NCBI GenBank assembly: GCA_963924565.1
Contig: OZ004613.1
Location: forward strand, 1,240,001 to 1,304,000
Length of the DNA stretch: 64,000 nucleotides
DNA from: Ascidiella aspersa
Taxonomy: Eukaryota
Direction of reading: 5' to 3'
A program made the position numbers and the translations under genes. Below are positions 59,868-61,027 of this stretch, one piece after another. Below the pieces are notes generated by a model. It made no database searches and was not told the DNA's origin. It saw only the letters and a list, made by a program, of their open reading frames with translations. Numbering within the stretch: position 1 is the first letter of the stretch; each line of letters begins with the position of its first letter.

Positions 59868-61027
59868 CTACTCCAGTTTATCGGTGCAAGAAGGAAAGAA
59901 ATACTTTTCGGTGCAGCTGCAGGTTCCTGAACCAGTGCAACATCTGGTCGCTTCTGAAGCAAGCCCGCAGCAGATTGTGCAGAAGTTCTCTTTATCGTGC
60001 TCGTAAAGTGCGGCTGTGGGTAAAACATGGGGTTTAAATACTTCACTGGTCACTTTAATCGCGACTTTCTTTCGAATAACAGAATCTACCGGAATCCGAA
60101 TGTTTATAAAAAAGCGATTTCTCACGATTAAATTCACAAAATTACAAAATGTAGAAAGTTCACTAGTTATGAAAAGTTGAAAATCTTTCACGAATGTAAA
60201 AATATATTAGAAAATAAAAAATAATTAATGAATGTAAAAAGAAAAAACACAACAGTCCAACAAATTATCGCCAAACGTAACAATTATCACGAAATACAAA
60301 AAAAAGGCAAAAAAATGTTAAAAGTGAAACTCATCACATTCGAAAAAAAAAATAAAAAAATAAAAAGCATATATATGAAAAAAACACGGGAAACACAAAA
60401 GATCACTCACCGGCGAATTCTTCATAAGATTGTTCCTTATCTTCCCTTGAAGGTCCATCCTGAAGACACTTGGCTCCCGACCCCACACTCTCGCAAAGTT
60501 CGTTCCCCGAACAGCATTTCACGTCGCCGTCAATCTGGCTGCACACGCTGCATGTTCGGCCTAAGATACAAGTAAAACATGTTTTTACTTTTATTTCAAA
60601 TAAGAGTTACGTGATATCCGTGCTTGAAGACGATAAATTTTGCCCGAAAATCTTATTTTAATTATTTTTTTATTAATAATTTTCACTTACTAGTTCTGGC
60701 CCAAATGATTTGCTATTTTGTATTTAATACTTTTATTAAACTGTTTACCATTAACAATGATATAGAGACTAATTGCAAAATTTAAAAAAAGGTGCAGCCG
60801 ATAGTAAGTTAAACCTGGTTTCATTTGACATTTTTTAAGTTAAAGTAATTAATTTAAACAAATGTTACAGTCTATTTACTTTCTAGTAAATAGTACTAAC
60901 CAAACTAAAAGAATGATAGTTTTAACAAGGCACCATTTTAAAAATAATTTTTACCCGCAGCTAATTCATTTATGCCAACGGCAAGACCAGCCAAGCATAG
61001 AACAAGGATTCCAACGAAGAACTTCAT
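59868..61027 (-). CDS. Small secreted protein with two related cysteine-rich modules (122 aa), family unassigned
   Basis: Exons 61027-60955, 60560-60411 and 60013-59868; both introns are GT-AG and phase 1; 369 nt in total. Translation: MKFFVGILVLCLAGLAVGINELAAGRTCSVCSQIDGDVKCCSGNELCESVGSGAKCLQDGPSREDKEQSYEEFAAALYEHDKENFCTICCGLASEATRCCTGSGTCSCTEKYFFPSCTDKLE*. It has a classic signal peptide, and AATAAA lies on the minus strand ~85 nt after the stop. Confidence 0.88.

Follow-up and report, generated by a model that had tools for sequence, protein, structure and literature searches.

Kazal inhibitors are alpha/beta folds held by disulfides I-V, II-IV and III-VI, and non-classical members such as the ascidian trypsin inhibitor carry an extra disulfide between helix and strand. 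Inhibitor cystine knot (ICK) peptides pair their cysteines I-IV, II-V and III-VI, with a threaded ring. Canonical inhibitors present a disulfide-held loop that occurs in at least 19 convergent families and takes its specificity mainly from the P1 residue; the Bowman-Birk loop has nine residues and the motif CTP1SXPPXC (PMC7760496). The ICK consensus is CX3-7CX3-8CX0-7CX1-4CX4-13C (PMC4942781). The mini-granulin fold is a beta-hairpin with two parallel disulfides. The U-superfamily conotoxin TxVIIB starts with C-x2-C, has the cysteine order C-C-CC-C-C and folds as a mini-granulin while its connectivity is that of an ICK; wrong assignment of such disulfide pairs by AlphaFold has been reported (PMC11035057). 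Granulins consist of 12-Cys modules split across half-module exons (PMC4527844, PMC7463432). Here we describe a gene whose product is predicted to be secreted and carries two cysteine-rich modules; it lies at 59868..61027 on the minus strand of a 64,000-nucleotide stretch of Ascidiella aspersa DNA (contig OZ004613.1), the whole of which is called the window below.

The 122-aa product probably belongs among the small disulfide-rich secreted binders and inhibitors, in a family that is undescribed and, from the relatives found, probably tunicate. It is conserved and predicted to be secreted, it comes from what is probably a tunicate, the invertebrates most closely related to vertebrates, and its cysteine framework could be placed by no search made here. 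The last loop of module 2 resembles the reactive loop of Kazal inhibitors.

Gene structure

Three exons on the minus strand, separated by two GT..AG introns that are both phase 1, encode the protein. Two GT-AG combinations existed within the ranges tried, and the 122-aa product came from one of them only.

60955..61027, minus strand: coding part of exon 1 (73 nt), with the start codon, predicted signal peptide and a short N-terminal extension; ends in phase 1
60561..60954, minus strand: intron 1 (394 nt, GT..AG, phase 1)
60411..60560, minus strand: exon 2 (150 nt, symmetric phase 1-1), with module 1 and the first part of an acidic linker
60466..60552, minus strand: module 1, six Cys, C-x2-C-x8-CC-x5-C-x8-C; spacing identical in the relatives P0001 and P0002 described below
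60014..60410, minus strand: intron 2 (397 nt, GT..AG, phase 1)
59868..60013, minus strand: coding part of exon 3 (146 nt to the stop), with the remaining linker, module 2 and the stop codon
59886..59981, minus strand: module 2, eight Cys, C-x2-CC-x8-CC-x5-C-x-C-x8-C; the better conserved module
59886..59915, minus strand: last loop of module 2, candidate protease-binding (canonical) loop
59778..59783, minus strand: candidate polyadenylation signal AATAAA, 85 nt past the stop

The exons have a GC content of 45-53%, compared to 24-28% in the introns, and both splice junctions were spanned by near gap-free alignments to full-length relatives. Judged from these sequence features, the three-exon gene is real. 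A gene of this structure, with phase-1 introns, had been proposed in the original prediction and was confirmed by the 122-aa product of the GT-AG exons, the GC contrast and the alignments across the junctions.

The cysteine spacing of the protein is 2,8,0,5,8 / 29 / 2,0,8,0,5,1,8, and its pI is 4.58. The N-terminus contains a hydrophobic 9-mer (mean 3.24), and the N-termini of the relatives P0001, P0002 and P0004 are of the same type; a signal peptide is predicted, with cleavage after about residue 18. A loose CxxC..CC..C..C pattern was matched twice in 263 kb, by modules 1 and 2 themselves, and not once in 100 block shuffles of the window. In one DNA run (X2), the sole difference listed for exon 3 was synonymous and the flanks carried many differences. 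Exons 1 and 2 were almost uncovered, and the run is therefore uninformative on these exons.

Expression was examined in one RNA run under the same species label, of unknown tissue. At 88% likeness none of the three exons had any depth in about 6 in 100 of the run. At 80% likeness no sense-strand coverage was attributable to the exons, with depth up to about 6 over the semaphorin-like neighbour. The junction check by RNA sequencing that had been suggested with the original prediction was thus run on a single sample: no spliced read over either junction was seen in it. As one sample of one tissue, it speaks neither for nor against expression.

Relatives and conservation

A two-row profile of the modules was searched against 1.84 billion representatives with a cut-off of E<=0.001. 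Five matches were returned, three of which (P0001, P0002 and P0004) are relatives; P0003 and P0005 were rejected as unrelated cysteine matches. P0001 is the uncharacterized protein LOC143464918 of Clavelina lepadiformis (XP_076819090.1; allele CAK8672781.1), with 42.5-44% identity to the 122-aa protein over 120 columns. It has the same two-module layout, 14 Cys and 29-residue linker, and differs in an x7 last loop and a Lys at the inferred P1 position. P0002 has 126 aa and is 36.8% identical. Both have a signal-type N-terminus, all 14 Cys and every spacing unchanged except the last loop, which is x7. In genome-wide searches P0001 and P0002 matched exon 2 (E 8e-4 and 9e-4) as well as exon 3 (E 3e-7 and 3e-6).

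P0004, called on a contig of 1,507 bases, keeps module 2. Once the reading frame is shifted, its middle part is compatible with the module-1 frame throughout, which 0 of 20,000 shuffles were; P0004 is thus likely to come from a fourth species, in a gene call that reads through an intron.

Module 2 has 14 invariant columns. Its non-Cys identity between species is 10-15 of 23 positions, compared to 7-9 of 23 for module 1. The acidic linker is exactly 29 residues long in the 122-aa protein, P0001 and P0002 (3/3), with a net charge of -4 to -6. Protein pI across members is 4.6-5.0, and the net charge of module 2 is 0 to +3. Identical spacings in the two modules had been claimed earlier. These spacings were found in the Ascidiella protein, but module 2 ends with an x8 spacing there only, and with x7 in all three relatives.

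Other searches added no members. Word-index homologue searches gave 0 matches for exon 3 and only P0001 itself when P0001 was the query, and an alignment used as the query returned only P0001 and P0002. Among metagenome contigs, 241 pattern matches were seen and 0 were confirmed. The Atlas returned no usable match for exon 3, and all P0001 scores were <=0.82. The narrow range, in which the only named relative is an ascidian (Clavelina lepadiformis), agrees with the lineage restriction first proposed.

Comparison with known families

No Pfam family passed for the exons or relatives (five members, E<=10; HMMER filters drop most matches above 0.1). Vanabins, defensins, hepcidin, WAP, agouti and other Cys-rich Pfam families gave no match in these five members, and searches of PDB sequences gave 0 matches, save two chance-level matches for P0002. 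The literature search found no description of this protein; subscription papers and the supplementary tables of tunicate proteomes lay outside it. Judged by sequence, the protein is not a Kazal, a Bowman-Birk, a granulin or a consensus knottin.

Module 1 has the C-C-CC-C-C order of ICK peptides and of framework VI/VII, whereas the order of module 2, C-CC-CC-C-C-C, differs. The module 1 spacing of 2,8,0,5,8 lies outside the ICK consensus at loop 1 (2 residues) and loop 4 (5 residues). The CxxC start had been described as not matching knottins, granulins, vanabins or defensins. The spacings do fit none of the families tested, but the start itself has a precedent in the U-superfamily conotoxins, where TxVIIB has C-x2-C in the same cysteine order (PMC11035057), and it is therefore unusual yet precedented. 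Loop 1 of two residues fits a mini-granulin and the loops of eight do not: those of TxVIIB have 2-4 residues. A low-confidence model draws hairpins. The family bears on how loop lengths choose between the knottin and mini-granulin folds, a question named as open in PMC11035057.

Granulins and progranulin (PF00396) share with the protein a CC-x8-CC stretch, here in module 2, and modules joined by short linkers. Neither the 12-Cys nor the 6-Cys half motif was found, PF00396 was not matched, and each module lies on one phase-1 exon, unlike the half-module exons of granulins. The granulin repeats of this genome itself have introns inside the module; they lie at C5:30.53-30.58 Mb (a long progranulin-type array, 20 matches) and at C1:19.83-19.84 Mb (L032-L036). 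With Bowman-Birk inhibitors the protein shares a build of two halves that are homologous, a total of 14 Cys, or seven disulfides when every Cys is paired, and a nine-residue loop starting C-T-P1 (PMC7760496). Bowman-Birk inhibitors differ in being a plant family; here the loop occurs in one module only and an acidic linker separates the modules.

AlphaFold models were of low confidence, with a pLDDT of 42.0 for the full-length protein and 54.1 for module 2. The full-length model has four strands (two hairpins) in module 1 and no helix in module 2; the module-2 model has a helix at residues 3-8. Fold searches with these models gave no match, which is uninformative at a pLDDT of only 42 and 54.

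The last loop of module 2

In all three relatives the last loop of module 2 reads C-T-K/R-T-L-x-P-S-C, with seven residues. The Kazal family (PF00050) likewise has a seven-residue loop between two cysteines, with Thr or Pro at P2 and Pro at P4'; these features were found in 3/3 relatives, and the Ascidiella loop has eight residues. The inferred P1 residue is Lys, Lys and Arg in the relatives and Glu in Ascidiella, and the flanking positions are invariant.

The Kazal set for comparison was drawn from 30 loci and 20 retrieved stretches (two overlapping the loci), which gave 29 distinct stretches and 16 distinct seven-residue loops; Kazal loops of other length or cut by introns were left out of the 16. 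The eight-residue Ascidiella loop was scored by its best single deletion. The four module-2 loops scored 4.78 against the 16 Kazal CysII-CysIII loops, compared to -6.99 +/- 2.71 for the column-permutation null (p=0.0006), in a post hoc test of four related sequences in which the motif had first been spotted by eye and the null permutes columns only. Each loop taken singly also resembled the Kazal loops (p=0.003-0.006). The x8 loop of module 2, used as a control, did not (p=0.76).

The genome contains 86 Kazal matches and the two-module gene is not among them, nor does the protein match PF00050. More than 60 of the 86 lie in a large tandem array of multi-domain Kazal genes on C3 at about 37.0-37.84 Mb (L121-L149), in which each domain is split over short exons. 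The cysteine order of Kazal domains fits only when read from Cys IV, and the V-to-VI spacing is much shorter here.

Proposed function and alternative explanations

These results point to module 2 as an inhibitor that blocks extracellular serine proteases in substrate-like fashion (standard mechanism), a proposal that we regard as evenly poised between right and wrong and that is the likeliest of those considered, ahead of a signalling ligand. The functions first listed for the protein had included inhibitor, toxin, signalling ligand and metal binder; the evidence favours the inhibitor among these, and the inhibitor-like loop was absent from that account. Under the proposed mechanism, the signal peptide would be removed in the endoplasmic reticulum and the 14 Cys would pair into seven disulfides inside the modules. 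In module 2 the seventh Cys would serve as the P3 anchor, the invariant Thr as P2 and the next residue as P1, while the invariant Pro would shape the primed side of the loop. The rigid loop would then enter the protease active site and be cleaved very slowly, leaving the enzyme blocked. Because the inferred P1 is Lys or Arg, the relatives would have trypsin-like targets; because it is Glu in Ascidiella, specificity there may be changed or lost. Module 1, without such a loop, may be a scaffold or a second binding head. The target would be endogenous, since the gene is conserved and apparently single-copy, and may be among haemolymph, tunic or fertilisation proteases. If the inhibitor proposal is true, the canonical inhibitor families gain a scaffold in which P1 has switched naturally from Lys/Arg to Glu.

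Several observations weigh against an inhibitor of this kind. The Ascidiella loop keeps the Thr and Pro-Ser pattern of its relatives and has one extra residue and a Glu after the Thr. The loop test was post hoc, as described above. The last loop of module 1 showed no similarity to Kazal loops (p=0.64), and on the helix side the modules were not significantly similar to all 26 Kazal stretches (p=0.27 and 0.09). The Kazal cysteine order, I-II-x7-III ... IV-x2/6-V ... VI, and the G-S/T-D-G-x-T-Y-x-N stretch after Cys III are both missing; the 122-aa protein and its relatives end 2-5 residues past the last Cys. The Bowman-Birk motif CTP1SXPPXC occurs in 0/4 sequences. The sole Pfam match was a weak one to a bacteriocin (E=0.049) and none was to a Kazal domain, and the AlphaFold models give the loop geometry no support.

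The protein might instead be cut at linker Arg residues to release one or two endogenous signalling ligands, knottin-like or mini-granulin in fold, that bind a cell-surface receptor; we consider this possible but doubtful. A signal peptide followed by an acidic spacer and a Cys-rich peptide is the arrangement of the sea-star KARTESH/CHUPA precursors (PMC11891777), and the C-C-CC-C-C order of module 1 with its CxxC start is that of the mini-granulin in TxVIIB (PMC11035057). The low-confidence full-length model, with its two hairpins in module 1, would suit such a fold, and the gene is apparently single-copy with a strongly conserved module 2. As for the processing into two peptides that had been suggested, one of the 29 linker positions is invariant, an Arg seven residues after module 1, but a single such position may be chance; another Arg lies six residues before module 2 in P0001 and P0002. 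A dibasic site is present in P0002 only, and absent from the 122-aa protein and from the linker of P0001. The fixed linker length (3/3) fits a spacer better than a discarded propeptide. A ligand would also leave the Kazal-like loop unexplained, and no receptor is indicated.

Small size, secretion, richness in disulfides and a module 2 net charge of 0 to +3 would also suit a defence effector, that is an antimicrobial peptide or a deterrent against other organisms, and the weak Atlas look-alikes (0.77-0.79, leads only) include arthropod toxin-like clusters. Such a role is unlikely: the protein is net acidic, and it is conserved rather than hypervariable. With an acidic pI of 4.6-5.0 and no paralogue in the searches, a regulator fits better than a defence peptide. 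A structural or matrix-binding protein of the tunic or egg coat, built of follistatin-N/EGF-like C-x5-C-x8-C hairpins, appears very unlikely. Module 1 of P0002 is in register with four repeats of a Cys-rich eggshell membrane protein (PDB 9pgb), but the E-value of 6.9 is at chance level, the protein has two modules only and there are few aromatics for carbohydrate binding. Least probable is a vanabin- or metallothionein-like metal binder using the CxxC and CC pairs as thiolate ligands. The CxxC starts and the acidic linker suit one, but the signal peptide and the even number of Cys in each module favour disulfides, and no vanabin or metallothionein Pfam match was found.

A possible permuted Kazal fold

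A further proposal concerns the fold and is compatible in outline with the cysteine order: both modules would be circularly permuted Kazal domains, with the helix first and the reactive loop last. We consider this rather unlikely. Read in the order IV-V-VI-I-II-III, a Kazal domain gives C-x2-C..C|C..C-x7-C, the cysteine order of module 1. A non-classical Kazal with the extra helix-strand pair, read from Cys IV, gives C-x2-CC..C|C..CxC-x7/8-C, the order of module 2, and the predicted pairs in module 2 would be 1-7, 2-5, 3-6 and 4-8. Its origin would be a row of tandem Kazal domains, at a point where Cys VI of one domain directly precedes Cys I of the next. In one exon of the Kazal array of this genome these two cysteines, in a putative domain assignment, are apparently adjacent.

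In 4/4 sequences, Asn or Asp is found two positions ahead of the Cys that opens module 2, and Asn occurs at this site in 22/26 Kazal helix-side stretches. When the helix side was compared with the two single-domain C-x2-C Kazals of the genome, a subset chosen post hoc, p was 0.038 for module 1 and 0.11 for module 2. The module-2 model contains a helix and the full-length model does not, both at low confidence. The weak helix-side similarity and the V-to-VI spacing, much shorter than in Kazals, count against permutation. If the proposal is true, this would be a natural circular permutation of a textbook fold, a permuted inhibitor kept across tunicates.

Copy number and module duplication

The genome searched has 75 contigs and a total of 308.6 Mb. 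Searched as protein and as DNA, it returned the gene alone, which for distant paralogues is a lower bound, and no paralogue was found within 263 kb. One weak extra match each to L027 and L030, in the genome searches with P0001 and P0002, was rejected on reading. Three genome-wide Cys-motif scans gave 107 matches. Among the 83 that were retrieved, only the gene passed the profile; with the 24 remaining included, the two module-2 patterns coincide only at the gene. The gene is thus apparently single-copy in this genome, judging from these searches. An expanded family was not supported in this genome: the genome-wide Cys-pattern scan returned no paralogue.

Outside the cysteines, which were held fixed, modules 1 and 2 resembled each other more than permuted columns did (p=0.010). 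This similarity and the symmetric phase-1 exon give modest support to an old duplication of the module, leaving the exon-duplication origin first suggested plausible.

Genomic neighbourhood

Copies of an abundant short repeat bracket the gene at 58456-58497 and 61149-61260 (contig depth about 4,000-4,600x single copy). Capture of the gene by a transposon was considered and rejected, because the two inverted arms (58456-58497 and 61149-61190) are copies of this very abundant repeat, whose ends face the gene. An exact 56-nt tandem duplication lies about 120 nt upstream of the start codon, and intron 2 contains a repeat fragment near 60010-60150.

At 54638-58195 on the plus strand, separate frames hold a BED zinc finger, an open frame of 521 aa and a dimerisation domain of hAT type. 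In another DNA run this locus is covered by a single contig of 4,221 bases, at single-copy depth and with 20 differences, and the RNA depth of the locus is about 0.3-0.9. It is possibly a domesticated ZBED-type gene with introns. Just past the window end, an intronless open frame of 1,125 codons on the plus strand (L003:2510-5884 = C7:1305510-1308884) encodes a fucokinase / fucose pyrophosphorylase-domain protein and is divergent from the gene studied. These two neighbours give no indication of the function of the two-module protein.

A semaphorin-like multi-exon gene with weak Sema and Ig Pfam matches occupies about 37500-51000 (plus strand), with thin stranded RNA coverage over 43900-51900. 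The last exons of a RIG-I-like RNA helicase lie at 1031-3379, plus strand (Helicase_C, E 3.5e-10; RIG-I C-terminal domain, E 1e-11). Elsewhere in the genome lies an intron-bounded GH6 match; GH6 in animals is a tunicate mark, and together with the only named relative, an ascidian, it makes a sea squirt the likely host. The matched exon, at C5:19613851-19614090 (L031), is of the type seen in the cellulose synthase of tunicates or in related genes.
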